A stretch of DNA of 64,000 nucleotides, taken from the NCBI GenBank assembly GCA_947575605.1, contig CANPNZ010000002.1, forward strand, positions 31,020 to 95,019, in the 5' to 3' direction. The position numbers and the translations under genes were made by a program. Positions 21,106 through 46,686 of this stretch are shown here, piece by piece. Position 1 is the first letter of the stretch, and each line of letters opens with the position of its first letter. The stretch comes from an uncultured Clostridium sp. Lineage in GTDB: Bacteria > Bacillota > Clostridia > TANB77 > CAG-508. The notes under the pieces are model-generated. The model had not been told where the DNA came from. It saw only the letters and a list, made by a program, of their open reading frames with translations, and ran no database searches.

Positions 21106-21255
21106 CAAAATTTATTATATTTTTATAAAATAACAATTCGGGGGGACCAACAAATTATAGAATGTTATCAAATTTTATTAATTTTTTTAATAAAATTTGA
21201 TTTACAGTCTATTATGTGGTTGGGAGTTATTTTATAAAAATACTAATAAATTTTG
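21106..21255. repeat. Family B palindromic repeat, copy 1 (inverted partner at 46538-46686)
   Basis: Reverse complement of 46538-46686 matches with about 93 % identity. Internal perfect palindrome ATCAAATTTTATTAA-T7-TTAATAAAATTTGAT; G6 tract. Confidence 0.8.
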
Positions 21256-21287
21256 TTAGTATTTTTTAACTGTAAAATGTAACAAAA

Positions 21288-22259
21288 ATGGAGGAAACTA
21301 TGCTTTTTTATAATTTTGATTACTTGGATGATTTCATAAAAAATGATATCATTCCTAATTTAAAAAAAGAAAGAGAAACCATAAAAGAAATTATAAATGT
21401 ATATGATAATAAAAAAAACAATTTATTAACCATTATCAACAACATGCTTGATATAGCAGATTCTATTCAAAAGCCTAATTTAGATGAGTTTCATAAAACT
21501 GTTTCTTTTTTAAAGCAATCTTTAGAAAACATAAATTTTATGGAAGAATTAGCTTCTAAATTAGAGCAAGAGTTAAGTTTAATCCTTTCTTTATATGACA
21601 AAAGTATCGAAAATAACTTGGAAGAAATAAAAGCAAATTTAGTAGAATATAATAAGCAACGTGATGAATTATCCCAAAAAATTTTAGAATTTGAAAATAC
21701 CTATACTTCTATTTTGAATTCTGCCATTGAATTATCTTTAAAAACAAATCGTAAAAAAGTAAAAAAACAAAATAAGATCAAAAACAATGCTTTTTCAAAA
21801 GATACCTTAAAAGTGAATATTGAACTGGAACCTTTTGATTATAACATTTTAACCGTTTCAGAAAAAGATCAAAAAGCTTATTTGCCTTTCTTCTACTCAG
21901 AAATAAAAGAAATTTACCAAAATTCAAATGATTATGCAACCTTACAAGATGTCGTAAATAATTTGTATATTGTTCCATTGGATCGATTCAGAAATTCGGC
22001 TATTGCTAGATTTAAAGAAAGCTTTCATTTAATGCGTAACAAAGAAAAGAGTTCTATTACGAAAGCTTTAGATTTAGCATTAGAGTTGATGTTTAAATAT
22101 GAACTAAATCCTATTGTTATTGCTGCTTGTAGAAATTTAGATGAATTAGATATTTACTTGGATTGTTTAGAAGAAAATGAATTGCAAGATTTTTCTTGTT
22201 TTGAGATAAAATTTGAAGTGATGCCAAAATTAACGAAAAAAAATACCTTTTTATTTTAA
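21288..22259 (+). CDS. hypothetical coiled-coil protein
   Basis: ORF with RBS GGAGGA; no recognisable domain. Confidence 0.4.
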   Translation: MEETMLFYNFDYLDDFIKNDIIPNLKKERETIKEIINVYDNKKNNLLTIINNMLDIADSIQKPNLDEFHKTVSFLKQSLENINFMEELASKLEQELSLILSLYDKSIENNLEEIKANLVEYNKQRDELSQKILEFENTYTSILNSAIELSLKTNRKKVKKQNKIKNNAFSKDTLKVNIELEPFDYNILTVSEKDQKAYLPFFYSEIKEIYQNSNDYATLQDVVNNLYIVPLDRFRNSAIARFKESFHLMRNKEKSSITKALDLALELMFKYELNPIVIAACRNLDELDIYLDCLEENELQDFSCFEIKFEVMPKLTKKNTFLF

Positions 22260-22279
22260 GGTATTTTTTCCTATTTTTT

Positions 22280-22930
22280 GTGTACACTAAATTTATTATG
22301 AATCAAATTCTAAGTACAAATTTAAAACAAAATAAAAAATCTCCCGAAAAGAAAAGTTGGTTTAAATTTCAGTTTACTTTTTCCGTGTTAATTATCATGA
22401 TATGTCTTTTTGGTATATCATCGTATTTTTATCATTTACAAAAAGAGGAAAATTTTTCCGATCGCCTAATTGCTAATTATAATATTTATCGTTTATATAG
22501 TACTCCTGAAAATAATCCACAAAGGGAATCTTCCAATGGCTTATTTGGTATTATAGAAATACCAAAAATCAATTTGTATTATCCTATATTTTCACATTTA
22601 ACAGAAGATTTATTAAAAGTTTCTCCTTGTAAATTTTATGGTGATACGCTAGATATCGAGGGAAATATCTGTATAGCGGGTCATAATTATGATAATTCTT
22701 TATTTTTTAGTAAAATATCTACTTTGTCGATAAATGATGAAATATCTATTTTTGATAATAATGGCAAACAATATCTTTATTGGATTTATGATATTTATGA
22801 AGTTTCTGAATCCGATCTTTCCCCTATTTTAAATTATCAAGAAGGTGAAAAAATTCTGACCTTAGTTACTTGCAATAATTTTAATAGCAATAGAATTATT
22901 GTAAGGGCAAAACAAAAAAAGCTTTCCTAA
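22280..22930 (+). CDS. sortase (class A/D-like)
   Basis: N-terminal TM; catalytic His region (CIAGHNYD) and LTLVTC Cys motif. Confidence 0.7.
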   Translation: MYTKFIMNQILSTNLKQNKKSPEKKSWFKFQFTFSVLIIMICLFGISSYFYHLQKEENFSDRLIANYNIYRLYSTPENNPQRESSNGLFGIIEIPKINLYYPIFSHLTEDLLKVSPCKFYGDTLDIEGNICIAGHNYDNSLFFSKISTLSINDEISIFDNNGKQYLYWIYDIYEVSESDLSPILNYQEGEKILTLVTCNNFNSNRIIVRAKQKKLS

Positions 22931-22963
22931 AAAAGCTTTTTATATAAAACAAGAAATCTTTAC

Positions 22964-23320
22964 TTATATGTTTCTATAATCTTTTATTTTCTTGTAAGCA
23001 TAAGCTGCTGATATACTAAATACAACTACTAACATAGCTACTGGAATAGAATCTTCTATACCTGTTTTTGGTAAATTGGTATTATTGTAAATACTTGAAT
23101 TGTTAGTATTATTAGCTTTGTTTGTATTGTTGGTATTAGTATTTCTGTTAGTATTATTAGTATTGCTATTACTATTTGTATTATTGTTATTGTTATTATT
23201 AACAGTTGGTGTTAAATCAGTAAAGTCATTGTCAGCTGCTAATACATTGGTACTAAACATCATTACCATTACCGTAATTAATAAAATTGAAAATAATTTG
23301 ATTAAATTTGATTTTTTCAT
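22964..23320 (-). CDS. small LPXTG (LPKTG) cell-wall-anchored protein, Asn/Thr-rich
   Basis: Signal peptide; N/T repeat region; LPKTG then hydrophobic domain and KKIKDYRNI tail; adjacent to the sortase. Confidence 0.7.
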   Translation of the reverse strand: MKKSNLIKLFSILLITVMVMMFSTNVLAADNDFTDLTPTVNNNNNNNTNSNSNTNNTNRNTNTNNTNKANNTNNSSIYNNTNLPKTGIEDSIPVAMLVVVFSISAAYAYKKIKDYRNI

Positions 23321-23540
23321 TTTTGTTTCTCCTTTTCTTTTTATACATTTTTTATTAGTATTCTTTTAATCGTTTTAAATTATACCACTTTTTTATGTAT
23401 AATTCAAGTGACTTTTACAAAAAATATATAAATACTAATTTCTTTCGTTTTCATTTATTATTTTATACTTAAAAATAATATAAGTCAATACTTTTTTTGG
23501 TTTTTAATTTTACATTTGCGTTACATAAATGTTACATTTT

Positions 23541-24632
23541 TTACACATTAAATTTGAATAGTACAATATCCCCATCTTGCATAACATATTCCTTTCCTTC
23601 GGAACGTACCAATCCTTTTTCCTTTGCATTTGCCATAGAACCTACCTTCATTAAATCAGAATAAGAAACAACATCTGCTTTTATAAATCCTCTTTCAATA
23701 TCTGAGTGAATTTTGCCAGCTGCTTGCGGAGCTTTGGTTCCTTTTTTTATCGTCCATGCTCTTACTTCTGGCTCACCAGCTGTTAGAAATGACATTAATC
23801 CTAATAAATCATAACTTTTTTTAATTACTTTATCGAGTCCCGATTCTTCTAATCCAAGAGCTTCTAGCATTTCTTTTTTGTCTCCTTCTTCTAAACCAGA
23901 TAATTCTTCTTCTATTTTTACGCATAATGGTATTACTTCTGCTTTTTCCTTTGCCGCATAGTCTTTTACTTTCTTTACCATCTCATCCTTTTCCAGATCC
24001 TCTAGTTGTTCTTCTGAAACATTAGCAATGTATAAAATCGGTTTTGTGGTTAATAAAAACATTTCTTTTACCAATTCTTCCTCTTCTTCACTAAAATCAA
24101 TGGCTCTTGCTGATATTCCATTTTCTAAATTTTCTTTTATTTTTTCTAATAGATTAATTTCTTCTTGGTATTTTTTGTCTGCTTTTAAATTTTTTCTTGC
24201 TTTATCTAACCTTTTATTGACAGTTTCTATGTCAGCAAAAATTAATTCTAAATTAATTGTCTCTATGTCTCTAATCGGGTCAACATTTCCATCTACATGG
24301 ACAACATTGGAATCTTCAAAACATCTTACCACTTCACATATACTGTCTGTTTCGCGGATATGAGATAAAAATTTATTTCCTAGACCTTCCCCTTTGCTAG
24401 CTCCTTTTACTAATCCAGCTATGTCAACAAATTCAATGACAGCATGGGTTGTTTTTTGTGGTTGATACATCTTGGTTAATTCTTCTAATCTTTCATCTGG
24501 TACACCAACGACCCCTACATTTGGTTCAATCGTACAAAATGGATAATTGGCACATTCTGCCCCTGCTTTTGTAATACTATTAAACATGGTACTTTTTCCG
24601 ACATTTGGTAATCCTACAATTCCTATTTTCAT
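23541..24632 (-). CDS. ychF: ribosome-binding ATPase YchF
   Basis: GLPNVGKST P-loop; 363 aa with TGS domain C-terminus. Confidence 0.9.
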   Translation of the reverse strand: MKIGIVGLPNVGKSTMFNSITKAGAECANYPFCTIEPNVGVVGVPDERLEELTKMYQPQKTTHAVIEFVDIAGLVKGASKGEGLGNKFLSHIRETDSICEVVRCFEDSNVVHVDGNVDPIRDIETINLELIFADIETVNKRLDKARKNLKADKKYQEEINLLEKIKENLENGISARAIDFSEEEEELVKEMFLLTTKPILYIANVSEEQLEDLEKDEMVKKVKDYAAKEKAEVIPLCVKIEEELSGLEEGDKKEMLEALGLEESGLDKVIKKSYDLLGLMSFLTAGEPEVRAWTIKKGTKAPQAAGKIHSDIERGFIKADVVSYSDLMKVGSMANAKEKGLVRSEGKEYVMQDGDIVLFKFNV

Positions 24633-24654
24633 CTTTTTTTCCTTTCCAAAACTT

Positions 24655-24850
24655 ACTATTGTTTATTAGAAAATATTGCCAATCCAAGATAATTTATATT
24701 ATTTTTGCAACTACTTTGTAAGCGATCAAACGAGCTATGCGAGTGCGATTGGAGCAATCGACGAACATCTCTTTAATTTTGGAGATTGCGACGCACAAAG
24801 TGTAAAAAAATACTATAAATTATCTTGGAGGCAGATTACTAAAAAACATA
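24655..24850. repeat. Family C palindromic repeat (core aagcgatcaaacgagctatgcgagtgcgattggagcaatcgac)
   Basis: Core about 90 % identical to 41003-41065; flanked by imperfect inverted arms. Confidence 0.65.
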
Positions 24851-24852
24851 AA

Positions 24853-26763
24853 TTAGCTATTTTTTAGTTTTTGTTCAAAATCTTCTATGGACATAGTTCC
24901 CATATCGCCTTCTTCTCTGGAGCGAACTGCGACTGTCTTGGCCTCTACTTCTTTATCTCCAACAACTAGCATATATGGCACTTTTTCAAGCTGAGCTTCT
25001 CTAATTTTGTATCCGATTTTTTCATTCCTATCATCGACTACTACACGAATACCTTTTTTGAATAGTTCTTCTCTTACTTGTTTTGCATATTCTTGTTGAT
25101 TATCTGTAATTGGTAGTATTTTTACTTGTGTTGGTGCTAACCAGATTGGGAAAGCTCCTTTATATTCTTCGATTAAGAAAGATAAGAAACGATCAAAAGT
25201 ACCTAAAATAGCTCTATGAATCACAACTGGTCTATGTGCTTTTCCATCTTCTCCAATATATTCTAATTCAAATCTTTGTGGCAATAAGAAATCTAATTGA
25301 CAAGTTGATATAGTAATATCATGTCCAATTGCTGTTTTGATTTGAACATCTAGTTTTGGGCCATAAAATGCTGCCTCTCCTTCTGCTTCATAGAAATTAA
25401 TTCCTAATTCTGTTAAAATTTCTCTTAATTGACTCTCTGCGTTATCCCACATTTCATCATCATCTAAATATTTTTCTTTATCCTTTTTATCTCTTAAGGA
25501 TAAACGGAAAGTATAATCTTTAAATCCAAAATCTTCATACACAGATAAAATTAATTTTACCACTTCACCAAATACGGACTTGATTTGTTCTGGTGTTACA
25601 AAGATATGGGCATCATTTTGACACATTTCACGAACTCTCTCTAGTCCGCAAACACTACCACTTGATTCATATCTAAAATCATGGGCTAATTCTCCTATCT
25701 TGATTGGTAAATCACGATAAGAATGTAATTTGTTTTTGTAAATTAACATATGATGAGGACAGTTCATTGGTCTTAAAACCAATTCTTCATTATCCATTTT
25801 CATAACAGGAAACATATCTTCATGGTAATGATCCCAATGACCACTTGTTTTATATAACGCTACATTAGCAAGTGATGGTGTATAAACGTGTTGATAACCT
25901 AAAGCAATTTCTTTATCCGCAATATATCTTTCTAAAATTCTTCTAATGGTTGCTCCATTTGGTAAATACATAGGAAGACCAGAACCTACCAATTCATGTG
26001 TCATAAATAGTTCTTGCTCTTTTCCTATTTTTCTATGATCTCTTTGTCTTGCTTCTTCTAAAAAATCTAAATGTTCTTGTAACATACTTGCTTTTGGAAA
26101 AGAAATAGCATAGATTCTTTGTAACATTTTATTTTTCTCGCTACCTCTCCAATAAGCTCCAGAAGAAGATAAAATTTTGACTGTTTTTACTTTTCCTGTA
26201 CTTTCTAAATGAGGACCTGCACATAAATCAGTAAAATCACCTTGTTCATAAAAACTGATTTCTTCTCCTTCTGCTAGTTCTTCAATTAATTCTACTTTAT
26301 ATGGTTCATTTTTCATGAATGCAATGGCTTCACTTTTAGGCAAAGAAAATCTTTTAATGGATAAATCTTCTTTGATGATTTTTCTCATTTCTTCTTCGAT
26401 GTTTGCTTTATCTTCATCCGTAAAAGGTTTTTCTACATCAAAATCATAATAAAATCCTTCGTCTATGGCTGGTCCGATTGCCATTTTAGCATCTGGAAAT
26501 AATCTTTTTACAGCTTGTGCCATAATATGTGATGTGGTATGCCAGTATGCTTTCTTTCCCTCTATATCTTCATTTTGAAAAGTATGAATGACTAATTGGC
26601 AATCTTGTTTTAATTCATATCTTAAATCTTTTACTTCTCCATCTACTTCCCCACATGTAGCATTTCTTGCTAGTCCTTCACTAATTTGTTTTGCTACTTC
26701 TAAAATAGAACTTCCTTCTTGTACTTCTAAAATTGACCCATCTTTTAATGATACTTTAATCAT
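24853..26763 (-). CDS. thrS: threonine--tRNA ligase
   Basis: TGS, editing and class II catalytic domains; start MIKVSLKDGS with AAGGAGG RBS. Confidence 0.95.
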   Translation of the reverse strand: MIKVSLKDGSILEVQEGSSILEVAKQISEGLARNATCGEVDGEVKDLRYELKQDCQLVIHTFQNEDIEGKKAYWHTTSHIMAQAVKRLFPDAKMAIGPAIDEGFYYDFDVEKPFTDEDKANIEEEMRKIIKEDLSIKRFSLPKSEAIAFMKNEPYKVELIEELAEGEEISFYEQGDFTDLCAGPHLESTGKVKTVKILSSSGAYWRGSEKNKMLQRIYAISFPKASMLQEHLDFLEEARQRDHRKIGKEQELFMTHELVGSGLPMYLPNGATIRRILERYIADKEIALGYQHVYTPSLANVALYKTSGHWDHYHEDMFPVMKMDNEELVLRPMNCPHHMLIYKNKLHSYRDLPIKIGELAHDFRYESSGSVCGLERVREMCQNDAHIFVTPEQIKSVFGEVVKLILSVYEDFGFKDYTFRLSLRDKKDKEKYLDDDEMWDNAESQLREILTELGINFYEAEGEAAFYGPKLDVQIKTAIGHDITISTCQLDFLLPQRFELEYIGEDGKAHRPVVIHRAILGTFDRFLSFLIEEYKGAFPIWLAPTQVKILPITDNQQEYAKQVREELFKKGIRVVVDDRNEKIGYKIREAQLEKVPYMLVVGDKEVEAKTVAVRSREEGDMGTMSIEDFEQKLKNS

Positions 26764-26769
26764 ATCAAT

Positions 26770-27040
26770 TCCTCCTTTAAACATCAAAAAACACTCCAAT
26801 TGATAATTACTATCTAGGAGTGTATATTTTACACGGTTCCATCCTATTTTTTACTTAATTTAAGAGGATAACGGTTCTTTTCCGCCTAGCTTATTCACTA
26901 GGAACTTTCGAAGAGTTAGTTTTTCAGATAGGTTTTCTTGAATCGGTTTCCAGCCTAAGACCCATTCTCTCTTGAAGTAACCTCTATCTTACTTTTCTCT
27001 TACTTGTTTTTATTTTTTATAAGGCAATAAATTTAAAATC
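26770..27040 (-). promoter_or_regulatory. T-box riboswitch leader (Thr specifier ACC) with terminator
   Basis: On the minus strand: AGAGAG, specifier region gaaaACCtatc, and T-box sequence AATAGGATGGAACCGTG. Terminator ACACTCC...GGAGTGT followed by T6 just before the thrS RBS. Confidence 0.7.
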
Positions 27041-27174
27041 ACACTATATTCTCAATTTATAGCCATTTTCTTTTCTCACCATTATAATTTTAATCTATTT
27101 TTTGAAAAAAGTCAATAGAAATTGTTTACTTTTTTGTTTTCTTGTTGTATAATAAAAAAGTGATGTGTCTTTAT

Positions 27175-27250
27175 GCTTCCATAGCTCAGTTGGTAGAGTG
27201 CTACCTTGGTAAGGTAGAGGTCACGGGTTCAATTCCCGTTGGAAGCCCCA
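27175..27250 (+). tRNA. tRNA-Thr (anticodon GGT)
   Basis: Cloverleaf; anticodon loop TTGGTAA; T-loop GGTTCAATTCC; 3' CCA encoded. Confidence 0.9.
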
Positions 27251-27323
27251 TGAATTCTAATAAAAAGAGTTGTTAGCTTTTATTTTGGCAACAACTCTTT
27301 TTTTATTCGTAGTACTTTGATTA

Positions 27324-31943: not shown

Positions 31944-31963
31944 AATGAAAGGGAATTAATAGT

Positions 31964-33958: not shown

Positions 33959-34557
33959 TTATTCACAAGGTTTCCTATCATTCATATAAAATTTTTTCTC
34001 TGCTAATTTATCTTGAACGCCACGTAGTGCTTCTCCAAATCTTTGGAAATGGACTACTTCTCTTTCTCTTAAATATCTTAATGGATCTAAAACATCTGGA
34101 TTGTCACGGCAAAGATCAATTAATTTTTCATAGGTCGCCCTTGCTTTTTGCTCTGCTGCTAAGTCTTCTTGTAAGTTTGCAATTGGATCTCCTTTACAAG
34201 CAATATATGCTGCTGTGAATGGTACTCCTGCTGCTGATGCTGGATATACGTCTACTCCATGATCCGTATAATATGGTGCTAATCCTGCTTTTTCAATTTC
34301 TTCAATGCTTGCTCTGTCTGTTAATTGGTGTACTATGGTTCCTACCATTTCTAAATGGGCTAATTCTTCGGTTCCAATATCATTTAAAATAGCTTTTGCT
34401 TTTTGATCTGGCATACCAAATCTTTGAGAAAGATATCTTAAAGAAGCAGCAAGTTCTCCATCAGGTCCACCATATTGAGATATAATCACTTTAGCAAGTT
34501 TTGGATCTGGACATTTTATATTGATTGGATATTGTAATGTTTTATTATAAGTCCACA
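33959..34557 (-). CDS. cotJC: spore coat protein CotJC (manganese-catalase-like)
   Basis: MWTYNKTLQYPINIKCPDPKLAKVIISQYGGPDGELAASLRYLSQRF is near-identical in pattern to B. subtilis CotJC. RBS AAGGGGG. Confidence 0.85.
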
Positions 34558-34639
34558 TTAATAATTCCCCCTTTCCCATGGCCAGTTTTCGTTTTGTTTG
34601 GAGGAACTATTTGTTTATACAATTTTTATATCCATATTT

Positions 34640-34707
34640 ATCATTAAAGTGGATATTAAATAGCCTTCAAATGGATACCTTTAATATATCCACTGGGGGC
34701 TTTTTTT
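34640..34707 (+). terminator. hairpin plus T-run built from inverted TTAAAGTGGATAT motifs
   Basis: aagtggatattaaa...tttaatatatccact followed by GGGGGC T7. Confidence 0.5.
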
Positions 34708-34958
34708 AGTATCTTTAAAGTGGATATTTTGAGAGGCTTCTAATATGCTAAAAATAAGTCAAAACTCAAAAAAAGTTGTTTGGAGTTTAAAGGGTATGAT
34801 ACAGGAAAAGGGATTTCAAGAAAATTAAGTGTGTATATTGTTTTATGTTTTGATATGGATATATAGCTGATAAAAATTAATGTAAAAATTTGTTGAAGAG
34901 ACGAATTTTTTATGATAACATACTATCAAGATTTATTTAAGTAATTAGGAGATTTGTA

Positions 34959-35489
34959 ATGAAATTATATGTAATTAGACATGGTGAAACTAATATGGGT
35001 AAAAATGAAATTATAGCAACTGAAGATGAGCCATTAAATGAAACAGGTATCCAACAGGCTATAGCAGTTGGAAGAGATATTAAAAAGTTAAATATTAATA
35101 AAGTATTTTGTTCTCCAATACCAAGAGCAAAACATACATTAGAATTATTTGGATTAAATAAAAATATTCCTGTGATAATTGAAAATAGAATAAAAGAACG
35201 AGATATGGGAATATATGAAAAAGTTCCTTTTGAGCAACTTAAATGGGATGAATTTTGGAATTATAATTCAGATAGATTATATCCAGAATTAGAAACTATG
35301 AAAAGTGTATATGAAAGGATATCAGATTTTCTAAATGAATTAAAATCAAGTAATAGTAATGATAATATTTTATTAGTTACACATGGAGGAATATCAAGAG
35401 CGATTTATTGGTATTTCAATGGAATACCAGACAATGGGAATTCATCTAATATTAATGAAAATTGTAAAATCTATAATTATGAACTATAA
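34959..35489 (+). CDS. histidine phosphatase family protein (phosphoglycerate mutase-like)
   Basis: RHGE catalytic motif at N-terminus; HGG motif. Confidence 0.7.
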   Translation: MKLYVIRHGETNMGKNEIIATEDEPLNETGIQQAIAVGRDIKKLNINKVFCSPIPRAKHTLELFGLNKNIPVIIENRIKERDMGIYEKVPFEQLKWDEFWNYNSDRLYPELETMKSVYERISDFLNELKSSNSNDNILLVTHGGISRAIYWYFNGIPDNGNSSNINENCKIYNYEL

Positions 35490-35504
35490 AGAAAGGATTT
35501 AAAA

Positions 35505-36029
35505 ATGAAATTATATTTAGTAAGACATGGAGAAGTAAATCATAATTTATATGGATTGTATAACAGAGAAGATGAGGACTTAAATGAAACAGGAATACAA
35601 CAAGCAAAGAATTTAAAAGAAAAAATTAAGGCTATAAAATATGATTTTATTATCTGTTCTCCATTATCAAGAGCAAAACATACTGCTGATATTATTAATA
35701 TTGATAATAAAAATATAAAAATAGATGATAGACTTAAAGAACGAGATCCAGGTAGTTTAAGTGGACAACCCATCGAAGTAACAAATAGAGAAGAATATTG
35801 GAATTATTATACATCTATTCAATATGGTACAAGTGAAAATATTAAAGAATTTTTTAATCGTGTTTACAATTTTTTAGATGAGTTAAAAACAAAGGATTAT
35901 GAAAACGTTTTAATTGTAGCTCATAGTGGAGTATCGAAAGCATTTAATGGTTATTTTAATGGAATAGTTGATGGTAAATTCTTAAATAGAGGATTGAAAA
36001 ATTGTGAAATAAAAGAATATGAAATGTAA
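35505..36029 (+). CDS. histidine phosphatase family protein (tandem paralog)
   Basis: RHGE motif; paralog of the preceding gene. Confidence 0.7.
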   Translation: MKLYLVRHGEVNHNLYGLYNREDEDLNETGIQQAKNLKEKIKAIKYDFIICSPLSRAKHTADIINIDNKNIKIDDRLKERDPGSLSGQPIEVTNREEYWNYYTSIQYGTSENIKEFFNRVYNFLDELKTKDYENVLIVAHSGVSKAFNGYFNGIVDGKFLNRGLKNCEIKEYEM

Positions 36030-36480
36030 AACTAATATTAAAGTGGATATATTTTTCTTCTATAACCTTTGAAACATAAGCCTTTAAAAAATTTGCATGT
36101 ATATATTTTCAAAACAATTAAAATATTATATAATCACTTTAGTAACAATTAACATTCAAATTGCTACTACAAAACTATATAAAAAAATAAGTAAACACTT
36201 TTTGAACTAAAATGAATAAATATAAATTATCTTCGGACAATTTATATTTATTTTTTTCGTTCATAAACTTATGTAGAAGGTGATTCAATGCAAAAAAACA
36301 CATTACAACCTAAAGTAAAAAATATATATAATGAAAATGGCTTAACACTTACAGAATTAATACAAGAATGGTTAAATGAAAATTATTTTTTTTGGAATTT
36401 AAATAATGATAAAAATGAAATAAAATATAAAGGTATAAATAAATAGTTATCGTAAATTTAAACTCTGGAAAGGAGGATAA

Positions 36481-38031
36481 ATGCAAGAGTTAAACTATAA
36501 CTTTCCCCCTACTTATTTTAAAGTAGGAATTTACACAAGACTTTCAAGAGAAGATGAAAAAGACAAAGAATCTGAAAGTATTGATACTCAAAAAAAGTTA
36601 TTAACAAACTATATAAAAAGTCAAGGTTGGACTTTATTTAAAATATATGTAGATGATGGATTTACTGGTACAAATTTTAATAGACCAGATTTTAAAAATT
36701 TAATAAATGATATTGAACTTGGTAATGTAAATGTAGTCATTACAAAGGATTTATCAAGACTTGGCAGAGATTATATTGAAACAGGTTATTATTTAGAAAA
36801 ATACTTTCCATTAAAAAATGTAAGATATATTGCTTTAAATGATGGAATTGATACATTTGATAATAACAACACCAATAATGATATGACACCATTTAAATCT
36901 GTTTTTAATGATATGTATGCAAAAGATATCTCAAAAAAAGTTCGTTCCAGTTTGCTAACAAAAGCATCAAGTGGACGAAATATCAAATCTTTTTTACCTT
37001 ATGGCTATAAAAAAGATGAAAAGGACAAAAATATCATTTTAATAGATTATGAAGTTTCTCCTATTGTTCAAAAAATATTTGAAATGTATTATGCAGGAAA
37101 TAATAAAACTGAAATATGTAGATATCTAAATAAAAATAAAATACTAACACCACTTGCCTATAAAAGAAAAACTACAAACTATTATAATCCAAATAACAAA
37201 ACAAATTTATGGAGTACAACCATGATTTCTAAAATTCTTAGAGATAGAATTTATACAGGAGATTTAGTACAACATAAATATAGCAAATTGAATTACAAAA
37301 CTAAAAAAATTATTGATGTACCAAAACAGCAACATATTATTATTGAAAATAATCACAAACCAATCATTGATAAAAATATTTTTAATAGTGTTCAAATTAT
37401 GCTTGATAAAAAATCAAATGAATGGAATTATACCGCTTCTTCTGCTCATTTGTTACAAGGGCTAGTTCTATGCAAAAAGTGTAAATCAAAAATAACCTAT
37501 AATAAAAATCATGGAAAATATTTTAGATGTGTGTGTTCTTCTTATAAAAGAAATGGTAGTAAATTTTGCTCTAATATCCATTTAAGAGAAGATACTTTAA
37601 TTAGTAGTGTAATTACTAGTTTGAAAGAAAACATTTCTGATTTTCTAAAATACGATGAATTAGAATATATCTGTCCTAATACACAAATAGATAATAAAAA
37701 ATTAGATTATTTGAATTCTAAAATAACTGAAAAGGATGATTTGATCCAGTCTTTATATGAAGATAAAGTAAAAGGAATTATCACAGAAGATTTATTTATC
37801 AAACTTTCTAAACAATATGAAGTAGATAAAAAAACTTTACTAAATCTAGTTCAAAAAGAAAAAGAGATTAATAAGAATACAATAAAAAAAGAAGATTTAA
37901 TCTGTAATGTGAAAGAATTATTAGATTTTAATGAAAATAACCTAGATAGAAATTTGCTTTTAAAATTAATTGATAAAATAGAAATAGATGATGACAATAT
38001 TGAAATTTATTATAAATTTAAAGCCATTTAA
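36481..38031 (+). CDS. large serine recombinase (resolvase domain + recombinase domain + zinc ribbon)
   Basis: YTRLSREDE catalytic Ser region; LSRLGRD; Cys-rich zinc-ribbon CKKCKS...CVCSSY; C-terminal coiled coil. Confidence 0.9.
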   Translation: MQELNYNFPPTYFKVGIYTRLSREDEKDKESESIDTQKKLLTNYIKSQGWTLFKIYVDDGFTGTNFNRPDFKNLINDIELGNVNVVITKDLSRLGRDYIETGYYLEKYFPLKNVRYIALNDGIDTFDNNNTNNDMTPFKSVFNDMYAKDISKKVRSSLLTKASSGRNIKSFLPYGYKKDEKDKNIILIDYEVSPIVQKIFEMYYAGNNKTEICRYLNKNKILTPLAYKRKTTNYYNPNNKTNLWSTTMISKILRDRIYTGDLVQHKYSKLNYKTKKIIDVPKQQHIIIENNHKPIIDKNIFNSVQIMLDKKSNEWNYTASSAHLLQGLVLCKKCKSKITYNKNHGKYFRCVCSSYKRNGSKFCSNIHLREDTLISSVITSLKENISDFLKYDELEYICPNTQIDNKKLDYLNSKITEKDDLIQSLYEDKVKGIITEDLFIKLSKQYEVDKKTLLNLVQKEKEINKNTIKKEDLICNVKELLDFNENNLDRNLLLKLIDKIEIDDDNIEIYYKFKAI

Positions 38032-38134
38032 ACTTTTAAAACCAAATTCTAATAAATTCACAATAGAGATTGTAAATTCAATTTGAACTTGCTATAATAT
38101 ACATATAAATTACAAAGAAAGGAGCTGATTAACT

Positions 38135-38431
38135 ATGTCTGAAACACAAATACAAGCAATCAAAGATGTTATAAAAATGACACCACGACTTAATATAGAA
38201 TGTCTAAATTCTGTTAAAATTCTAATGGAAAAAGCTATTGATTCAGAATTATTAAGACTAGAACCTACTGTCATTTTAGAAAACATGGATATTACGGAAA
38301 AAGTAATGTATTTGGACTATTTAACAGAAAGCAAAGATACCAAAGAAAAAGAACAAAAAAATGCAGTATCTTTTGAAGAAATACTAAAAAGAGAGGGGTT
38401 GACTTACGATGATTTACAAGATAAAAATTAG
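38135..38431 (+). CDS. putative antitoxin (upstream partner of the RelE/ParE-like gene)
   Basis: Small acidic protein whose stop overlaps the start of the toxin-like ORF. Confidence 0.45.
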   Translation: MSETQIQAIKDVIKMTPRLNIECLNSVKILMEKAIDSELLRLEPTVILENMDITEKVMYLDYLTESKDTKEKEQKNAVSFEEILKREGLTYDDLQDKN

Positions 38432-38655
38432 ACCCAAAGCTCTCAAATTTATTGAAAAACAAGACAAAATTCAAAAACTACGAATTTACAAAGCAATTTA
38501 CAACCTGCCCAATGGCGATGTTAAGAAAATGGTAGGTTGTAAAAATGAATATCGACTTCGAGTTCGGTGATTATCGTATTATTTATGAATTAAATCAAGA
38601 TGAACTTATTATTTTAGTAACAAAAACTGACAACAGAGGACAAGCTTATAAGTAA
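38416..38655 (+). pseudogene. RelE/ParE-family toxin, frameshifted near 38565
   Basis: MIYKIKIRPKALKFIEK...NEYRLRV, then +1 frame GDYRIIYELNQDELIILVTKTDNRGQAYK, matching the RelE/ParE fold. Confidence 0.55.
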
Positions 38656-38710
38656 TGATTTTTAAATCTTTAAAATTAAACTCTAAATCAAATTTTTATT
38701 CAGAAAGAGT

Positions 38711-39079
38711 TTAAACTACTCCCAAACCAAACGAAACCCATGGCTCTTCCAACCATCTCCATTTATTACAAGGGTACTGAATGGTAAGAGGTCCATATAC
38801 TTTTTGGTATTTATCTTTTAAATCTTTTACATATTTGCAATACTTTCTATGCAAACAAAGTGCTTTTTCATCTTCTGGATGGGTATCTAAATATAATGCC
38901 AATTCTGTAATAGCAAAATCATAACATCTAATTTGTTCGATCATTTCTCTTCTTTCTTCACAATCAACTGTTCTTTCTACTTCACAAGTACAGTTATTAG
39001 ACATATTAGATACCATCATAGCATCATCCATATGGTTGTTACAACTGCAACCACAATTTCTGCTTTCTTCTACTGACAT
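38711..39079 (-). CDS. cotJB: spore coat protein CotJB with Cys-rich N-terminal extension
   Basis: CotJB signature LYLDTHPEDEKAL...YGPLT...EEPW. Confidence 0.8.
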   Translation of the reverse strand: MSVEESRNCGCSCNNHMDDAMMVSNMSNNCTCEVERTVDCEERREMIEQIRCYDFAITELALYLDTHPEDEKALCLHRKYCKYVKDLKDKYQKVYGPLTIQYPCNKWRWLEEPWVSFGLGVV

Positions 39080-39426
39080 TTATTACACCCCTTTCCAATT
39101 TCATTGGTTTCTCTTATATAGTTTATTTCCTCCATAGATTGGCCAGGTACATACGGACTAACTAATTCTGGAAAAATCGTTCCCATTTTTAAACCAACAC
39201 ATGGTTTAAAAGTTTTATCCATATATTGAATTGGTACATAACTTTGAGCTAACATTGGGTTTTCTGGAAACATATTATATTCTTCGTCAAATCCACAGTC
39301 ACAACTATTAGAATATTCTTCATAAGAAACTACATCATTACATTGTTTTTCTATCATATCATTTTGCATTTCACATGAATCATTATGATAACTATTATTC
39401 ATACAATAACATTTTCTTCTAAACAT
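39070..39426 (-). CDS. cotJA: spore coat protein CotJA
   Basis: CotJA signature SYVPIQYMDKTFKPCVGLKMGTIFPELVSPY; start MFRRK with GGAGG RBS. Confidence 0.75.
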   Translation of the reverse strand: MFRRKCYCMNNSYHNDSCEMQNDMIEKQCNDVVSYEEYSNSCDCGFDEEYNMFPENPMLAQSYVPIQYMDKTFKPCVGLKMGTIFPELVSPYVPGQSMEEINYIRETNEIGKGCNKCQ

Positions 39427-39993
39427 TTTCCTTCCTCCTTCTATTAACATAATATGTTTCTTCTTTGTAATATGATACAAAGTAATTTTCTAGTATAAAT
39501 TTAAACAATCATAACCACCCGTAAAACGGATGGTTTGCTCTAATCCTTTTTTCATTTTTCTTTCTTTTTCCTTTTCTTCTTTTTCAAATGGGTCTACATA
39601 TTCTTTAATACTTATTTGATCTGTTGCTATATCTTTTTGTAACTGCTTTCTTATGTATTCTTCTATTACTTTTTTATTTTTACCTACTGTATCTACATAA
39701 TAACCTGTACACCAAAAGTACCTATTTCCATATTTCTATCTATTTTCATAGATAAATTTCCTCCTTTGATTTTTATTTTTGAGGTTGACCAAACCAACAA
39801 TATTATATCAAAGAAGGAGATTTATTTTACTCATAGCTAGAAGCCTTTAGAACCCCACGTATAACATGAGGTTTTCATTATTCAACAAAATGCTAGTGAT
39901 AAATTACATCACTAGCATTAATCATTTTTCTTCAAAACTCAGATTAAATTCCCGTCTCGCCTATTCTATATCTTATATGTCACTTTTTTTAAA

Positions 39994-40524: not shown

Positions 40525-40644
40525 TTAATTTTCCTTCTTTCTTTTATCTTTTATTAATTCTTTACCATCACTTTTTTGCTCTTTTTTATATTAAATACAA
40601 AACAACACTCATATCAAAAATGACATAAGCGTTATTCTTAGTTT

Positions 40645-40836: not shown

Positions 40837-40939
40837 TCTAATCCCTCCCTTGCTTTTCGATATAGCTATATATCTTTTTCTATTTTTTCGTTATTTTTAG
40901 TCACTATAAGATTATACAAGTATTTTTCTTTTTTGTCAA

Positions 40940-41150
40940 TAGTTGCTTTCTTTTAAGTTTCGACTTTTTGCAAGTAAGGTTGTACTATATAATTTTTGAA
41001 ACTACTTAAGTAAGCGACTAAACGAGCTATGCGAGTGCGATTGGAGCAACCGACAGATAAAATCTAATTTTATAGGTTGCTTTCGCACTAAGTGGAAAAA
41101 ATTATATAGTACAACCTTACTTGCAAAAAGTCGAAACTTAAGTTGCTTCT
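40940..41150. repeat. Family C palindromic repeat with 42-bp perfect inverted arms (aagtttcgactttttgcaagtaaggttgtactatataatttt)
   Basis: Arms at 40955-40996 and 41097-41138 are exact reverse complements. Core shared with 24718-24780; truncated copy at 44795-44860. Confidence 0.8.
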
Positions 41151-41709: not shown

Positions 41710-41805
41710 AGTTAAGTTTACTATAACTTTTTTAGAAAATCAATAAATTTTCTTTTATTTCTTGCATATATTATATAATAGTTGATTGATAAATGGGAGG
41801 TAACT

Positions 41806-43626
41806 ATGTGTGGTTTTGTAGGCTTTGCCAACATAAAAGAAAAAATTTCACAAAATAGAACTGTATTAGAAAAAATGAATGAAACCCTTTCAAAAAGAGG
41901 TCCTGATGAAGATGGGTATTACCTAAAAGAACATATTGCTATGGGACATAAACGATTAATTGTAATTGATCCAAAAGGTGGTAAACAACCCATGATAGAA
42001 AGCTATTCTTATGGGGATTTTGTCATTTGTTATAATGGACAGATTTATAATACAAAAGAACTTAGAAAAACATTAGAAGAAAATGGATTTACCTTTCAAG
42101 GTCATTGTGATACAGAAGTTTTATTAAAAAGTTATATTTATTATGGAAATGATATAGTTCATCATTTGAACGGTATTTTTGCTTTTGCGATTTGGAATAG
42201 TAAAAAACAAGAATTATTCTTAGCACGTGATCATTTTGGTGTAAAACCGCTATTTTACACTATAAAAGATAATACTTTAATTTTCGCATCCGAATTGAAA
42301 GCACTTTTTAAATATCCTGCTATTACTAAAGAAATAGATGAACAAGGCATTTCTGAAATGTTTGGAATTGGTCCAGCTCATACACCTGGAACTACTATTT
42401 TTAAAGATATTTATGAAATAAAACCAGCACACTTTGGAATCTTTAATTCTTCTGGTTTACATTTGAAAAGATATTGGAAATTAACCTCAAAAGTTCATAC
42501 CGATAATTTTGCCCAAACTTGTGAAAAATTAAAATTTTTATTAGAAGATGCTATTACAAGACAATTAGTTTCTGATGTTCCCTTATGTACCTTTCTTTCT
42601 GGTGGATTAGATTCTAGTATTATTACAAAATTTGCCGCTGATTATTGCAAAAAGCAAGGATTGCCACCTTTAGATACCTATTCGATTGATTACGTAGATA
42701 ATGATAAAAACTTTGTTAAAAGCGATTTTCAACCAAATTCTGATAATTACTACATTGACTTAATGAATCAAAATTTGCATACAAATCATCATAAAATTGT
42801 AATTGATACACCAGAGCTTGCTTCTTATTTAGAAGATGCTATGATTGCTAGAGATATGCCAGGTATGGCTGATATTGACTCTTCTTTATTATTATTTTGT
42901 AAAAATGTAAAAAAAGAAATGACAGTATCTTTAACTGGTGAATGTGCTGATGAAATCTTTGGTGGATATCCTTGGTTTTTCCGTGAGGATGCTTTAAGTA
43001 GTAACACATTCCCTTGGTCAATTGCTTTGAAAGAAAGACAACAAATATTAAATCCTACTATTAGTAAAAAAATCAATTTGAAAGAATATGTTGATTTTCG
43101 TTATCATGAAAGTTTGGCAGAAGTCGAAATCCTAGATTCCGATTCGGAAGAAACTGCTGAAAAAAGAAAAATTTCTCATTTGACTTTAAATTGGTTTATG
43201 CAAACCCTATTAGATCGTTCTGATCGAATGGCTATGTATAATGGTTTTGAACTTCGTGTTCCTTTTTGCGATTATCGACTAGCTCAATATGTATGGAATA
43301 TTCCTTGGGAAATTAAAGCTTTGAATGGCAGAGAAAAAGGACTACTTCGTTATGTGGCAAGAGATTTTCTACCAGATGAAATTATTGATCGAAAAAAATC
43401 TCCTTATCCAAAAACTCATAATCCTACTTACCTCTATAAAGTTAAGTCACTGCTTACTGATATTATGAAAAATAAAAATGCACCAATTCATAGTTTGCTA
43501 AATCGCGATTTTATTTTGGATATTTTAAATACCGATGGAAAGTCTTTTTCACGTCCTTGGTTTGGCCAATTAATGACTCGGTCCACAACTTATGGCGTAC
43601 CTTTGCCAGGTGAATATGTGGCTTGA
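41806..43626 (+). CDS. asnB: asparagine synthase (glutamine-hydrolysing)
   Basis: N-terminal MCGFVGF nucleophile; SGGLDSS PP-loop. Confidence 0.9.
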   Translation: MCGFVGFANIKEKISQNRTVLEKMNETLSKRGPDEDGYYLKEHIAMGHKRLIVIDPKGGKQPMIESYSYGDFVICYNGQIYNTKELRKTLEENGFTFQGHCDTEVLLKSYIYYGNDIVHHLNGIFAFAIWNSKKQELFLARDHFGVKPLFYTIKDNTLIFASELKALFKYPAITKEIDEQGISEMFGIGPAHTPGTTIFKDIYEIKPAHFGIFNSSGLHLKRYWKLTSKVHTDNFAQTCEKLKFLLEDAITRQLVSDVPLCTFLSGGLDSSIITKFAADYCKKQGLPPLDTYSIDYVDNDKNFVKSDFQPNSDNYYIDLMNQNLHTNHHKIVIDTPELASYLEDAMIARDMPGMADIDSSLLLFCKNVKKEMTVSLTGECADEIFGGYPWFFREDALSSNTFPWSIALKERQQILNPTISKKINLKEYVDFRYHESLAEVEILDSDSEETAEKRKISHLTLNWFMQTLLDRSDRMAMYNGFELRVPFCDYRLAQYVWNIPWEIKALNGREKGLLRYVARDFLPDEIIDRKKSPYPKTHNPTYLYKVKSLLTDIMKNKNAPIHSLLNRDFILDILNTDGKSFSRPWFGQLMTRSTTYGVPLPGEYVA

Positions 43627-43654
43627 GAAATATCAGCCTAAAATTGAAATTTAA

Positions 43655-43698
43655 GTGAAAAAAGAGGTTCTTTATAGAGCCTCTATCTTTATATTTTT
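43655..43698. terminator. bidirectional intrinsic terminator between asnB and the CN-hydrolase gene
   Basis: AGAGGTTCT-ttata-AGAGCCTCT flanked by A6 and T-rich runs. Confidence 0.55.
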
Positions 43699-43813
43699 AT
43701 GTGTTATTTTTTAACATCCAAGTGATTGGCATTTTTTAGGTAACATATTTTACCAGCCATATATAGAGAATGGTTCTTTTTATTCACTCCTCTTTATTTT
43801 TCATCATTCCAAT

Positions 43814-44723
43814 TTATCTCCTTGCCTCATTTCTTACAAAAGGTGAAATTGGATGATTTAAAATTAAATCTCCGTAAGCAAATGGTTTTCTAAAAGCATC
43901 TCCTAAATACTGTGTTTCTCTATACTTTCTAATACTTTCCATATCAAAAGATACGATTTGAATTTCCTCATCTTCTCCCATTACTAGAAGTTCGTTGTCC
44001 ACTTCGTTTCCATATTCATCTTTTGTAATCGGACTATAAGCTGACGATTTTCCTTTATTTCTTTCGTTGGGATAATTAACGGTAACCATTCCTACCATAT
44101 TCTCATAAGCTCTGACTCTTTGTTCGTGTAATATGATATTTCTCATATTGCAGGCATTAGGTACTAATATTATTTCAGCCCCTTTTAGCATCAAAATTCT
44201 AGCACTTTCAGGAAAATCTCTATCATAACAAATCATAGTTCCTATTTTTACACTTTGCTTCCCATACTTCAACTCACACACATTAAAATCTGTTCCATAA
44301 TCTGTAAAAGCTTCCATTTTAAAATCTACGGTATGTACTTTTGAATAATCCAATATGATTTCTCCCTTTTCATCTATAATAGAAACTGTATTTCTTGGTT
44401 GTGGTTCGTGTTTTTCTAAATAAGTAACTGCTATTGCCATCTTTAATTCTTTAGCCGTATTTCTAAATTTTCTTATATAATCACTATTTTTATCAATTGC
44501 CTTATCTTGCCATTTTTTTATTTTATCTTCGTAGATTTCTGTCTGTTCTCTCTTATATCCGATAAAAGATATGTTCATACCCATTACTAAACATTTCTGG
44601 AAATACTGCAATATCTGCTCCCATTTCCTTTGCCTTTTTACAATATGCTATTCCTTTTTTTAGATTTTCTTCTATATTGCTGGTTGCATTAATTTGCAAT
44701 AGAGCAACTTTAAAATCGTTCAT
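43814..44723 (-). pseudogene. carbon-nitrogen hydrolase family protein, frameshifted near 44590
   Basis: N-terminal MNDFKVALLQIN...FPEMFSNGY in one frame. The remainder, including catalytic ICYDRDFPE, is in another frame. Confidence 0.6.
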
Positions 44724-44951
44724 TTCTATTTCTCCTCTTTTCTCTTATATTATGTTTCTATTTTAATCCTTTTTTTAATAATTCGCAATCCTATTTTTTC
44801 AAGTTTCGACTTTTTGTAAGTAAAGGCTTTCCTATATAATTTTTTAAACTAGTCAGGTAAGTGACCAGACAATCTTTTTATTCAGAGGAAATCTTCCTAG
44901 TAAAAAAAGAAATAGATAAAACTTATCTACCTCTTTTTTTACATTCAAAAT

Positions 44952-45203
44952 TTATTCATCATCATCATCGACCACTTTTTTTGGTCTTGAGATAATTTCA
45001 ACATGTTCTCTTTTTGTATTCTCTGGTTGTGATGTAATCAGACTAGACTTATCTGACAATTCAGAATATTTTTCTAAACTCATCATAACCATCGAACCAT
45101 ATCCATTTTTTGTTAAATAGATGGTTTGATTATTTTCCAAGATTGATTTTTCAATGGAATTATAATCATTTTGTAAATCTGGTATGGGTCTAATTTGTAT
45201 CAT
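44952..45203 (-). CDS. Phd/YefM-family antitoxin (orphan)
   Basis: Phd/YefM-like N-terminus IYLTKNGYGSMVMMSLEKYSEL; acidic C-terminal tail. Confidence 0.65.
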   Translation of the reverse strand: MIQIRPIPDLQNDYNSIEKSILENNQTIYLTKNGYGSMVMMSLEKYSELSDKSSLITSQPENTKREHVEIISRPKKVVDDDDE

Positions 45204-45382
45204 AAAATCACCAATCCTTTCTAATTGTTATTTATATTATATACAAAATTTTCAAAATTACACATATTTATAGGATTTTATAAAAATTTGTAAATTTTAC
45301 TAGACAATTTTTAACTTTTTGTGTTATCATAGTAAAGAAACAAAAGAACTAACCAAATTGGTTAAAATGGAGGGAAAAAATA

Positions 45383-45793
45383 ATGAAAACAAAAATATTT
45401 TTAATTTTAACAATAATAGCTATTTTATTAGGATTTAATTTCTGTTATGCCGTAGATTTAAACATGACTGATGATTTAGCTGATGATATGGATTTAACAA
45501 ATTCTTCATCAAACACCAATAGAACTTCCCCTACAAATACTACTAACTCTAACACAGATAATGCTAATAATACCACCTCTAATGATAATGAAGCAGATGA
45601 AATGAATACGAACAACACTACTTCAAATAGAAGTAATACCAGCACTCTAAGTACGCCAACAACAGTAAGTGACTTAAGTTCAACATCTAATTCAGGTTTA
45701 AACTTATCTACTATACTTAATATACTTTTAATTGTAATTGGTATACTTTTAATCTTATTAGCCATAGCAATTTTAATTCGATTAAAAAAATAA
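45383..45793 (+). CDS. small Asn/Thr/Ser-rich secreted protein with C-terminal membrane anchor (no LPXTG)
   Basis: Signal peptide; N/T-rich low-complexity region; C-terminal TM plus RLKK. Confidence 0.45.
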   Translation: MKTKIFLILTIIAILLGFNFCYAVDLNMTDDLADDMDLTNSSSNTNRTSPTNTTNSNTDNANNTTSNDNEADEMNTNNTTSNRSNTSTLSTPTTVSDLSSTSNSGLNLSTILNILLIVIGILLILLAIAILIRLKK

Positions 45794-45941
45794 ATTGTCA
45801 AAAACTCTCATTTTTGAGAGTTTTTTTTATTTTTGTAGGTATAAATTTTCTCTTTTTCTTAAATACTATAAATAGTATTTAATTTTCATATTTTATATGA
45901 AAACTAATAAGCTTATTAAATTAAAATAGGAGGATAATTTT

Positions 45942-46382
45942 ATGTACAAAAAATTATTATTAAGTATTGCTGTATTAATTATCGGAATTTTCTCTTTTTC
46001 TGTTTGTTTTGCTAATAATGGATTACAAGAGGCAGCAGATGGTGTTAGAAACGTAGTTGGTGATGCTGAAAATGCTGTTGAAGGTGCTGCAAGAGATATT
46101 TCAAATGCCTCTAAAGATGCCACAGGAAAAATGGAACAAGGTGCTAACAATGTAGGAAATGCCATCATGAATAATGACAACCATAACATGAATACAAGAA
46201 CAGCTACTGGAAACAATAATTATACTGCTACTAGAACAGGAACCACAGATAATACTTTTATGGGTATGAATGCTACTGCTTGGACATGGCTAATTATTGG
46301 TATCGCTGCTATTGCCATAGTAGCTTTAGTTTGGTATTACTCTATGCAAGTTCGTTCTTCTGATTATAATGGAAGAGATTAA
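45942..46382 (+). CDS. hypothetical secreted/membrane protein
   Basis: Signal peptide; C-terminal TM; RBS AGGAGG. Confidence 0.4.
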   Translation: MYKKLLLSIAVLIIGIFSFSVCFANNGLQEAADGVRNVVGDAENAVEGAARDISNASKDATGKMEQGANNVGNAIMNNDNHNMNTRTATGNNNYTATRTGTTDNTFMGMNATAWTWLIIGIAAIAIVALVWYYSMQVRSSDYNGRD

Positions 46383-46537
46383 TTTTAAAAGTTATGAATA
46401 GGTATTTGTACTAAATCTAAAAATTTAACATTTTTTCATTAAATACTAGGCAACTTAGGAATGAACTCTGTATTATCCAGAATTCATTCCTTTTTATTAT
46501 TATAATAGTTATAATTTACAGTTAAAATAGATACTAA

Positions 46538-46686
46538 CAAAATTTATTATATTTTTATAAAATAACTGCCAACCACATAATAGACTGTAAATCAAATTTT
46601 ATTAAAAAATTTAATAAAATTTGATAACATTCTATAATTTGTTGGTCCCCCCGAATTGTTATTTTATAAAAATATAATAAATTTTG
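46538..46686. repeat. Family B palindromic repeat, copy 2 (inverted relative to 21106-21255)
   Basis: Reverse complement about 93 % identical to copy 1. Confidence 0.8.

Follow-up and report, generated by a model that had tools for sequence, protein, structure and literature searches.

Two inverted palindromic repeats around a 25-kb chromosomal block of an uncultured Clostridium: probable separate insertions of a dispersed MITE-like element

Introduction

A 64,000-nucleotide stretch of DNA from an uncultured Clostridium species (contig CANPNZ010000002.1, positions 31,020 to 95,019; 27% GC), which we call the window, contains two palindromic repeats in inverted orientation about 25 kb apart. 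The left repeat, copy A, sits in a divergent spacer and promoter region between a short sodA gene and an uncharacterised open reading frame (ORF), which is followed by a sortase gene. It lies about 20 nt downstream of the inferred -10 box TGTTATAAT of this ORF, whose GGAGG ribosome-binding site follows after 6 nt. The right repeat, copy B, lies between the terminator hairpin of an ORF of 146 amino acids (ORF146) and smpB. The block between the two contains ychF, thrS, tRNA-Thr, genes for a sigma factor, GH18, Sua5/TsaC and a Schlafen-like helicase, cotJCBA, asnB, a large serine recombinase gene and others. An earlier reading of these letters without database searches, here called the original prediction, had listed ychF, thrS, tRNA-Thr, the sigma factor, tsaC, cotJ and the recombinase for this block, which is essentially right, and had seen in the repeat pair a substrate for a large inversion. 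Exact protein matches place the window among MAGs (metagenome-assembled genomes) of uncultured "Clostridia bacterium" and among gut metagenomes. We now find it likely that copies A and B inserted separately and that both belong to a mobile repeat that is small, codes for no protein and forms a hairpin, like the miniature inverted-repeat transposable elements (MITEs). The repeat family occupies intergenic spacers in a narrow clade of uncultured low-GC gut Clostridia, and the inverted pairing of the two copies looks coincidental.

Results and Discussion

A repeat search of the window gave inverted arms at 21096-21253 and 46539-46696 (158 nt, 95% complementary), and a MAFFT alignment of the wider regions around both repeats showed 94% identity. 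With the ends fixed from the comparison with empty sites and from the terminal inverted repeats, both copies turned out to be longer (Table 1). They agree at 201/213 positions (94.4%), including one uninterrupted stretch of 77 bp, the longest. The original prediction had placed the repeats at 21106-21255 and 46538-46686, as reverse complements of about 93% identity; the pair is real, while those boundaries are too short. The internal 15-bp hairpin around a T-run and the G6/C6 tract that it described are present in both copies and could be located. Overall, each copy is a long, imperfect and near-complete palindrome, and the minimum free energies of folding as RNA are -58.5 kcal/mol (z -8.3) for one strand and -56.8 kcal/mol (z -10.5) for the other. 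The main asymmetric feature is the G6 tract, which defines the orientation of the element, and the apical hairpin is the part that varies in length within the family. The termini GTTAYAWTTYACAG ... CTGTAAAWTRTAAC bound both window copies. Neither copy contains an ORF of 70 or more amino acids, and the element has no coding capacity. When a core 24-mer was searched in the window, only copies A and B matched, even at 3 mismatches (chance expectation 0.00).

Table 1. Repeats, their parts and neighbouring features in the window.
Feature	Position	Strand	Remarks
Copy A, long form	21073-21283	+	211 bp; G6 strand is the + strand; ends and flanks by sequence comparison
Copy B, long form	46508-46718	-	211 bp; G6 strand is the - strand
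Terminal inverted repeat, copy A	21073-21086; partner 21270-21283	+	14 bp, GTTAYAWTTYACAG
Terminal inverted repeats, copy B	46705-46718 and 46508-46521		14 bp
G6 tract, copy A	21140-21145	+	in the conserved unpaired loop AATTCGGGGGGA
G6 tract, copy B	46647-46652		reads C6 on the + strand
Apical hairpin, copy A	21167-21201		15-bp arms, T-rich loop
Apical hairpin, copy B	46591-46625		15-bp arms, T-rich loop
Candidate target-site duplication, copy A left	21065-21072		8 bp, AAAAATGA
Candidate target-site duplication, copy A right	21284-21291		AAAAATGG
Candidate target-site duplication, copy B left	46500-46507		8 bp, + strand, TTATAATA
Candidate target-site duplication, copy B right	46719-46726		TTATCATA
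Best promoter-like match, copy B	46611-46638	+ (C6 strand)	TTAATA-16-TATAAT, 10/12, toward smpB; consensus match only
Equivalent promoter-like site, copy A	21181->21154	- (C6 strand)	toward sodA
Inferred -10 box of the ORF adjoining copy A	21037-21045		TGTTATAAT
Xer-like tyrosine recombinase gene	14662-15654		conserved
sodA homologue	20551-20943	-	130 aa
ORF adjoining copy A	21288/21300-22259	+	uncharacterised
thrS	24853-26799	-	
tRNA-Thr	27175-27250		
cotJC	33959-34579	-	
Large serine recombinase gene	36481-38031		
cotJB/cotJA	38711-39480	-	
ORF146	45942-46382	+	146 aa
smpB	46821-47273	+	
ahpC	48786-49376		196 aa
Large serine recombinase gene next to ahpC	49379-51034		
GC-richer repeat family	24695-24817, 40952-41139, 44798-44875		palindromic at 40953-41141

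Evidence for insertion comes from a sister species, the closest relative found (89% protein identity for the ORF adjoining copy A), which has the same gene order as the window: MatE, sodA, the ORF, the sortase gene, ychF, thrS and onward. Here site A is empty. The spacer between sodA and the ORF is 356 bp long in the window but 139 bp in the sister species; the alignment has a single clean 217-bp gap located exactly at the element, and the empty sequence reads ...GAAGAAAAAAAT/TTGGAGG. Site B is empty as well, the ORF146-smpB spacer being 126 bp long compared to 438 bp in the window. Both empty loci are found on one contig, CAPTUN010000012.1, on which smpB follows about 22.9 kb downstream in the same orientation, so that the block is collinear and not inverted. 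About 110 kb of sister-species loci held no family member apart from half-remnants elsewhere. From the empty, collinear loci we conclude that the 25-kb block pre-dates the repeats or exists without them. The original prediction had already held that the segment is not a mobile element, and its housekeeping content together with its presence without repeats in the sister species confirms this.

At each window copy the flanking 8-mers match at 7/8 positions, for which we calculate a chance probability of about 0.1-0.4% each at the base composition of the window. The outer flanks of the pair (left of A compared with right of B) match at 2/8 positions only, so that each duplication goes with one element rather than with a unit of 25 kb. 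A duplication of the same fixed length, 8 bp, was seen at 6/8 positions around a diverged long-form copy in L023 and around a 56-bp shell in L022 (L-numbers denote retrieved loci or contigs of relatives that we compared with the window). This shell is a stand-alone palindrome, GTTACAATTCACAGCTTAAATAAGTAATAACAGAATTAATAACTGTGAATTGTAAC, present at L022 4192-4247 and L028 ~5240-5300; it has the 14-bp termini of the long form and no G6 hairpin, and is either an empty shell or an internal-deletion derivative. The terminal inverted repeats GTTAYAWTTYACAG ... CTGTRAAWTRTAAC thus occur in both window copies, around the L023 copy and, by themselves, in L022/L028, and the long form in the window therefore looks like a G6 hairpin enclosed by an outer shell.

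The repeat is not restricted to these two sites. We scanned the species-representative genome collection (GTDB) with the core 20-mer CGGGGGGACCAACAAATTAT and obtained 30 exact matches on 29 stretches in 10 species of uncultured Clostridium or Clostridia, all known as metagenome-assembled genomes (MAGs). Four of the MAGs had 7, 7, 5 and 4 exact matches, and several matches of the scan lay at contig ends. An nhmmer profile built from the copies found further diverged members, up to three in one 8-kb locus, and additional copies in the retrieved loci occur roughly once per 15-30 kb. Extrapolated from this locus density and from at least 7-10 copies per fragmentary MAG, the family probably has tens of copies per genome. 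All 38 copies examined (38/38) are intergenic, often only a few bp away from a stop codon or a ribosome-binding site. In the window's own species, short-form copies occupy two spacers of contig L042, MinC-PBP and PBP-MreD (PBP, penicillin-binding protein). An 89%-identical relative has neither copy at these sites, and the sister species shows them half-deleted. Whereas the long form measures 211 bp, the other forms span 116-190 bp, all below the limit of roughly 500 bp for MITEs.

The searches outside this clade gave no further members. Two JGI metagenome scans (with a left-arm 20-mer and a degenerate right-arm 22-mer) and one IMG/VR scan returned 0 matches. BLAST against plasmids and phages gave no phage match and only a 43-bp AT-rich partial match in a C. 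baratii plasmid. At gathering thresholds the Rfam scan of the window reported no family for the element, only tRNA-Thr, and a permissive scan of 20900-21400 gave only chance-level matches outside the element or at its edge. The family is limited to the clade of MAGs seen in the GTDB scan, and we found no literature description of such a repeat in Clostridia. Exact protein matches to ORF323, ychF and sodA led only to contigs that end inside the repeat, or to none; site A was resolved through homologues in the sister species. We considered such contig breaks as a sign of high copy number and rejected the argument, because the 77 identical bases shared by the two window copies alone suffice to break assemblies.

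Some of the repeats are nested. An extra apex insert of ~130-190 bp (CAGACAAATCTCGCTTTGTAAAAGCGTAAAGATTTGTCGACGCG...) is nested in three copies (L026 ~459-654, L032 ~1431-1698 and L037 ~2113-2377), and at L029 3940-4160 one family copy lies inside another GC-rich palindrome (TGTGACAAGAGGGGCGCCCC...).

Taken together, we favour the following sequence of events. The long form, consisting of a ~150-bp inner G6-loop hairpin within the outer pair of 14-bp terminal inverted repeats, would have inserted with an 8-bp target duplication. Such a duplication combined with terminal inverted repeats points to a DDE-type transposase that would be supplied in trans and would act by a cut-and-paste or copy-in route. 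After insertion, the element would persist as a long DNA or RNA hairpin with two co-evolving arms, could flip in place and would decay by loss of one arm. Decay of this type is visible at several sites at which relatives retain one arm only (L030; L067-69). In this reading, the opposite orientation of copies A and B has no special meaning, and the 25 kb between them are ordinary chromosome older than either insertion.

A number of observations weigh against this interpretation. Each target duplication in the window contains one mismatch, and the empty site A departs from the expected pre-insertion sequence by a 2-nt indel. The short forms, which are more abundant, gave no sharp ends and no consistent duplication, so that their mode of spread may differ. 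The window encodes no transposase, only serine and tyrosine recombinases that are unrelated to an 8-bp duplication. We did not find an autonomous partner with matching ends, in a scan of the genome collection that was aimed at the core motif and not at such a partner; among the matched loci, no transposase lay next to a match and no left-arm match adjoined a transposase-sized insert. Finally, retention of elements at orthologous sites, covariation of the stems and a strong orientation bias fit a selected RNA or DNA function as well. A motif at window position 14419 resembles the terminal repeat, but it is part of a coding sequence and we regard the likeness as chance.

The possible selected function leads to the most likely alternative, namely that the element is mainly, or was co-opted as, a structured RNA or regulatory cassette. 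We consider this possible on a tentative footing, and it is compatible with a mobile origin. Two variants can be formulated. The element could be co-transcribed within operon spacers as an imperfect duplex of 60-70 bp, which would either undergo cleavage (by RNase III, for instance) or lend stability to the mRNA; alternatively, it could deliver an outward-facing promoter, as in Correia, ERIC and bcr1. Strong hairpin covariation, which we count in favour of the MITE-like reading as well, argues for such a role. In a set of 31 distinct copies, 95.7% of the cells are paired in the hairpin, and double compensatory changes are found in 19/33 pairs compared to 9.0 +/- 1.4 in shuffles (0/500) and 6-10 in slid-partner controls. 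While the stems covary, the unpaired loop AATTCGGGGGGA and the motif CAGTTGGGAG remain recognisable in diverged subfamilies too. The same covariation would, however, result from gene conversion between the two arms of a palindrome in DNA, and the counts of G-U versus A-C pairs (26 vs 10 overall, 13 vs 9 after removal of one column) favour neither strand clearly. In three copies (L031, L033 and L038:4736-4920) the right-arm motif CAGTTGGGAG is replaced by CAGCCTAAGAG. Two of them lie at sites whose orthologues (L018, L011:4559-4742) keep TTGGGAG, which suggests recurrent conversion between family members.

The orientation of the copies also speaks for a regulatory function. Where the neighbouring genes run in the same direction, the G6 strand is antisense and the C6 strand sense at 18/19 unique sites, plus one mixed site (two-sided binomial p ~8e-5, own calculation). 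Copy B obeys this rule; copy A, located in a divergent spacer, is outside its scope. The bias could instead reflect the direction of replication, which is inseparable here from gene direction since the local GC/AT skew follows the coding strand and does not separate replication from transcription bias. On the C6 strand of both copies we found the best promoter-like match, directed toward sodA and smpB. Its -10 box lies in the conserved part of the arm but its -35 box falls into the variable apex. Such matches occur at background frequency in AT-rich DNA, and the count in region A is not above the shuffled background. The window copies contain no terminator-like feature. Additionally, elements are retained at orthologous sites across species, which favours a function, but close relatives lack the element at the same loci with no visible consequence.

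Known small palindromic repeats help to place the family. Correia or NEMIS elements, MITEs of ~104-157 bp in Neisseria, have terminal inverted repeats, a long hairpin, many copies and presence/absence variation between relatives, and they can carry outward promoter elements and be co-transcribed (PMC3184786). Our repeat resembles them as a small non-coding intergenic repeat with terminal inverted repeats, a hairpin, many copies and presence or absence between relatives. It differs in that there is no sequence similarity, the host belongs to another phylum, Correia elements duplicate TA and not 8 bp, and the Clostridia element has a promoter-like consensus match only. We know of no asymmetric G6 loop, nested outer shell or in-place flips in Correia elements. 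ERIC or IRU sequences of Enterobacteriaceae (~127 bp) are imperfect palindromes in transcribed intergenic regions and are regarded as MITEs with inverted repeats and target duplications (PMC3184786). The imperfect palindrome, the intergenic location and the inverted repeats with target duplication are shared with our element; ERIC is, however, TA-flanked, restricted to Enterobacteriaceae and Vibrio, and has no sequence relation to it. The effects of ERIC on mRNA depend on orientation. RUP is likewise a known small palindromic intergenic repeat.

Among Correia, ERIC, RUP and bcr1, the likeness to bcr1 is strongest, and its host phylum, Firmicutes, is the closest. In the Bacillus cereus group, this ~155-bp repeat has a distribution that is unconserved between close strains, is flanked by short direct repeats, is transcribed and shows compensatory changes that keep its structure (PMC3184786). 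It has no sequence similarity to our element, its duplication is 5 bp rather than 8 bp, and transcription is a feature of bcr1. The 8-bp duplication and the lack of any Rfam, plasmid or phage match place the Clostridia repeat outside these four families, a class assignment made without direct alignment of the consensus sequences.

A second alternative is a REPIN-like or attC-like single-stranded hairpin moved or flipped by an HUH transposase of the RAYT/IS200-IS605 type or by a tyrosine recombinase, and not by a DDE enzyme. We regard this as unlikely. REPINs are ~100-bp hairpins of two inverted arms with correlated arm changes that form families within a genome (PMC3116915). Our repeat shares with them the hairpin of two inverted arms and the membership in a repeat family, and its compensatory evolution resembles theirs (PMC3116915). 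Further points of agreement are that the whole element is a hairpin in which conserved extrahelical or unpaired bases mark one strand, that a conserved GTAG/GCAG stands directly 5' of TTGGGAG, that the orientation bias would fit strand-specific targeting of single-stranded DNA, that elements flip in place, and that the window has a gene for a conserved tyrosine recombinase of the Xer-like type. The arms of REPINs are short GC-rich REPs with a GTAG/CGTC tag, without target duplication and linked to a RAYT gene. The arms of the Clostridia element are AT-rich, they contain no self-contained 20-40-bp REP palindrome beside GTAG, and the conserved GTAG/GCAG is followed by no REP stem-loop. The short forms, which show no clear target duplication, would fit a REPIN in this respect, but neither HUH nor tyrosine-recombinase systems produce the terminal inverted repeats and 8-bp duplications of the long form. 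We saw no RAYT gene, although no genome-wide search was made, and the sister species, in spite of lacking these copies, has the tyrosine recombinase as well.

Two in-place flips between species were found at orthologous sites (L027 versus L015, and L011 versus L038). In both cases the flanks are aligned and the interior is reversed, and in the L011/L038 pair matching indels are present in both arms; assembly error is an unlikely cause. One may speculate that the repeats are dispersed hairpin cassettes recognised through the unpaired G6 loop by a host or element enzyme and flipped in place. We judge this quite improbable: the 18:1 bias, the two flips, the co-evolution of the arms and the conservation of the loop are compatible with it and do not require it. 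If it were true, flipping would reverse a one-sided promoter or RNA signal, and the family would represent a mobile, multi-copy "inverton" or a REPIN-like system in Firmicutes. Like the invertons of gut bacteria, the repeat is a short inverted-repeat segment found in either orientation at one locus, with a promoter-like -10 box on one strand only. In contrast to them, the flips are seen between species and not within a population, the whole element is palindromic and mobile, and no dedicated invertase is linked to it.

The suggestion that the pair matters as a substrate or switch for inversion of the 25-kb block has, in our view, very little chance of being correct. Two inverted 211-bp copies, 94.4% identical and with a 77-bp identical run, could in principle recombine, and this part of the original prediction stands; the significance of the bracket is unsupported. 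The copies are independent insertions with their own flanking duplications, they belong to a dispersed family, and by synteny the sister species, which has neither repeat, carries the block collinear with the window and uninverted. The contigs that span site B (L001, L004) display the window arrangement with the same filled junction. All contigs reaching into copy B share one orientation, and no recombinant A x B junction appeared among the contigs that span a junction.

One contig departs from the window at copy B. L042 (ERZ14651003 NODE_4634, 4.7x coverage) is 98% identical to window 44567-46622 and, at the copy B apex (L042 1949-2083), switches through an AAATTTT microhomology to an unrelated operon promoter region and not to smpB. 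The joined operon sequence is the upstream region of a cluster of a 148-aa ORF, minC, PBP and mreDCB, and this operon is intact in the sister species. The junction is either a real breakpoint at the palindrome apex or a chimeric misassembly. It indicates that breakage at the palindrome of copy B may occur, but it does not correspond to an inversion between A and B.

That the 25 kb form a composite transposon or genomic island bounded by the copies is suggested by geometry alone, namely inverted repeats at both ends, and can be dismissed, because the content is housekeeping (ychF, thrS, tRNA-Thr, sigma factor, Sua5/TsaC, asnB), the outer flanks match at 2/8 positions, the end repeats encode no transposase, and the sister contig, which has the same block at the same place without repeats, already refutes it.

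The neighbourhood of the repeats shows further peculiarities. In the sodA product the N-terminal hairpin domain is complete and the C-terminal one truncated; the sister species (L053-L057) keeps this 130-aa form too, so the gene is no recently formed pseudogene. Upstream of thrS, no T-box leader was reported by the gathering-threshold Rfam scan of the window. Between thrS and the gene for the sigma factor, the sister species carries a gene for a type I restriction S-subunit (Methylase_S; L053/L054 15845-16984), which is missing in the window (~27000-27320); this is one among several small indels in the otherwise collinear block. The cotJ operon is split in the window (33959-39480), with cotJC about 4.1 kb away from cotJB/cotJA. 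Two histidine-phosphatase genes and the large serine recombinase gene fill this gap, and in the related contigs L043 and L058 cotJC-B-A are contiguous, so that an intervening element carrying the recombinase appears to have split this sporulation operon.

To the right of copy B, ahpC encodes 196 aa compared to 236-264 aa in L001/L002/L058 and abuts another large serine recombinase gene. Two tandem units of ~5.5 kb follow (~49376-54900 and ~54900-60400; whole region 48786-60400) that are 70-90% identical; in relatives ahpC is intact and there is no insert. The window also contains a second, GC-richer repeat family (GTAAGCGAYCAAACGAGC...GCGATTGGAGCAAYCGAC), which begins with GTAAGCG and is found elsewhere in L042 (233-304 and 2939-3130), L013 and L024 (~5895-6066). 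In L024 it fills the orthologous spot of the 56-bp shell palindrome of L022/L028. It is probably what the original prediction had in mind as its "Family A".

Conclusion

In summary, the comparison disposes of a misleading signal: two insertions happen to bracket 25 kb that form no structural unit and no switch. It documents a previously undescribed family of small repeats in uncultured gut Clostridia. As a genome feature the family is ordinary, a new member of the known MITE-like kind, and its flips, orientation bias and conserved loop are modestly interesting leads. It breaks short-read assemblies, and most metagenome contigs at these loci end inside the element. Among housekeeping genes, smpB, sodA and the mreBCD-PBP-minC cluster are examples in which copies have entered 5'-untranslated regions or spacers within operons, and the arm losses together with one contig that has an apex breakpoint suggest that they may be fragile sites. 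Concrete hypotheses, testable once a cultured or long-read-sequenced member becomes available, follow from the biased orientation, the loop conservation and the flips in place.

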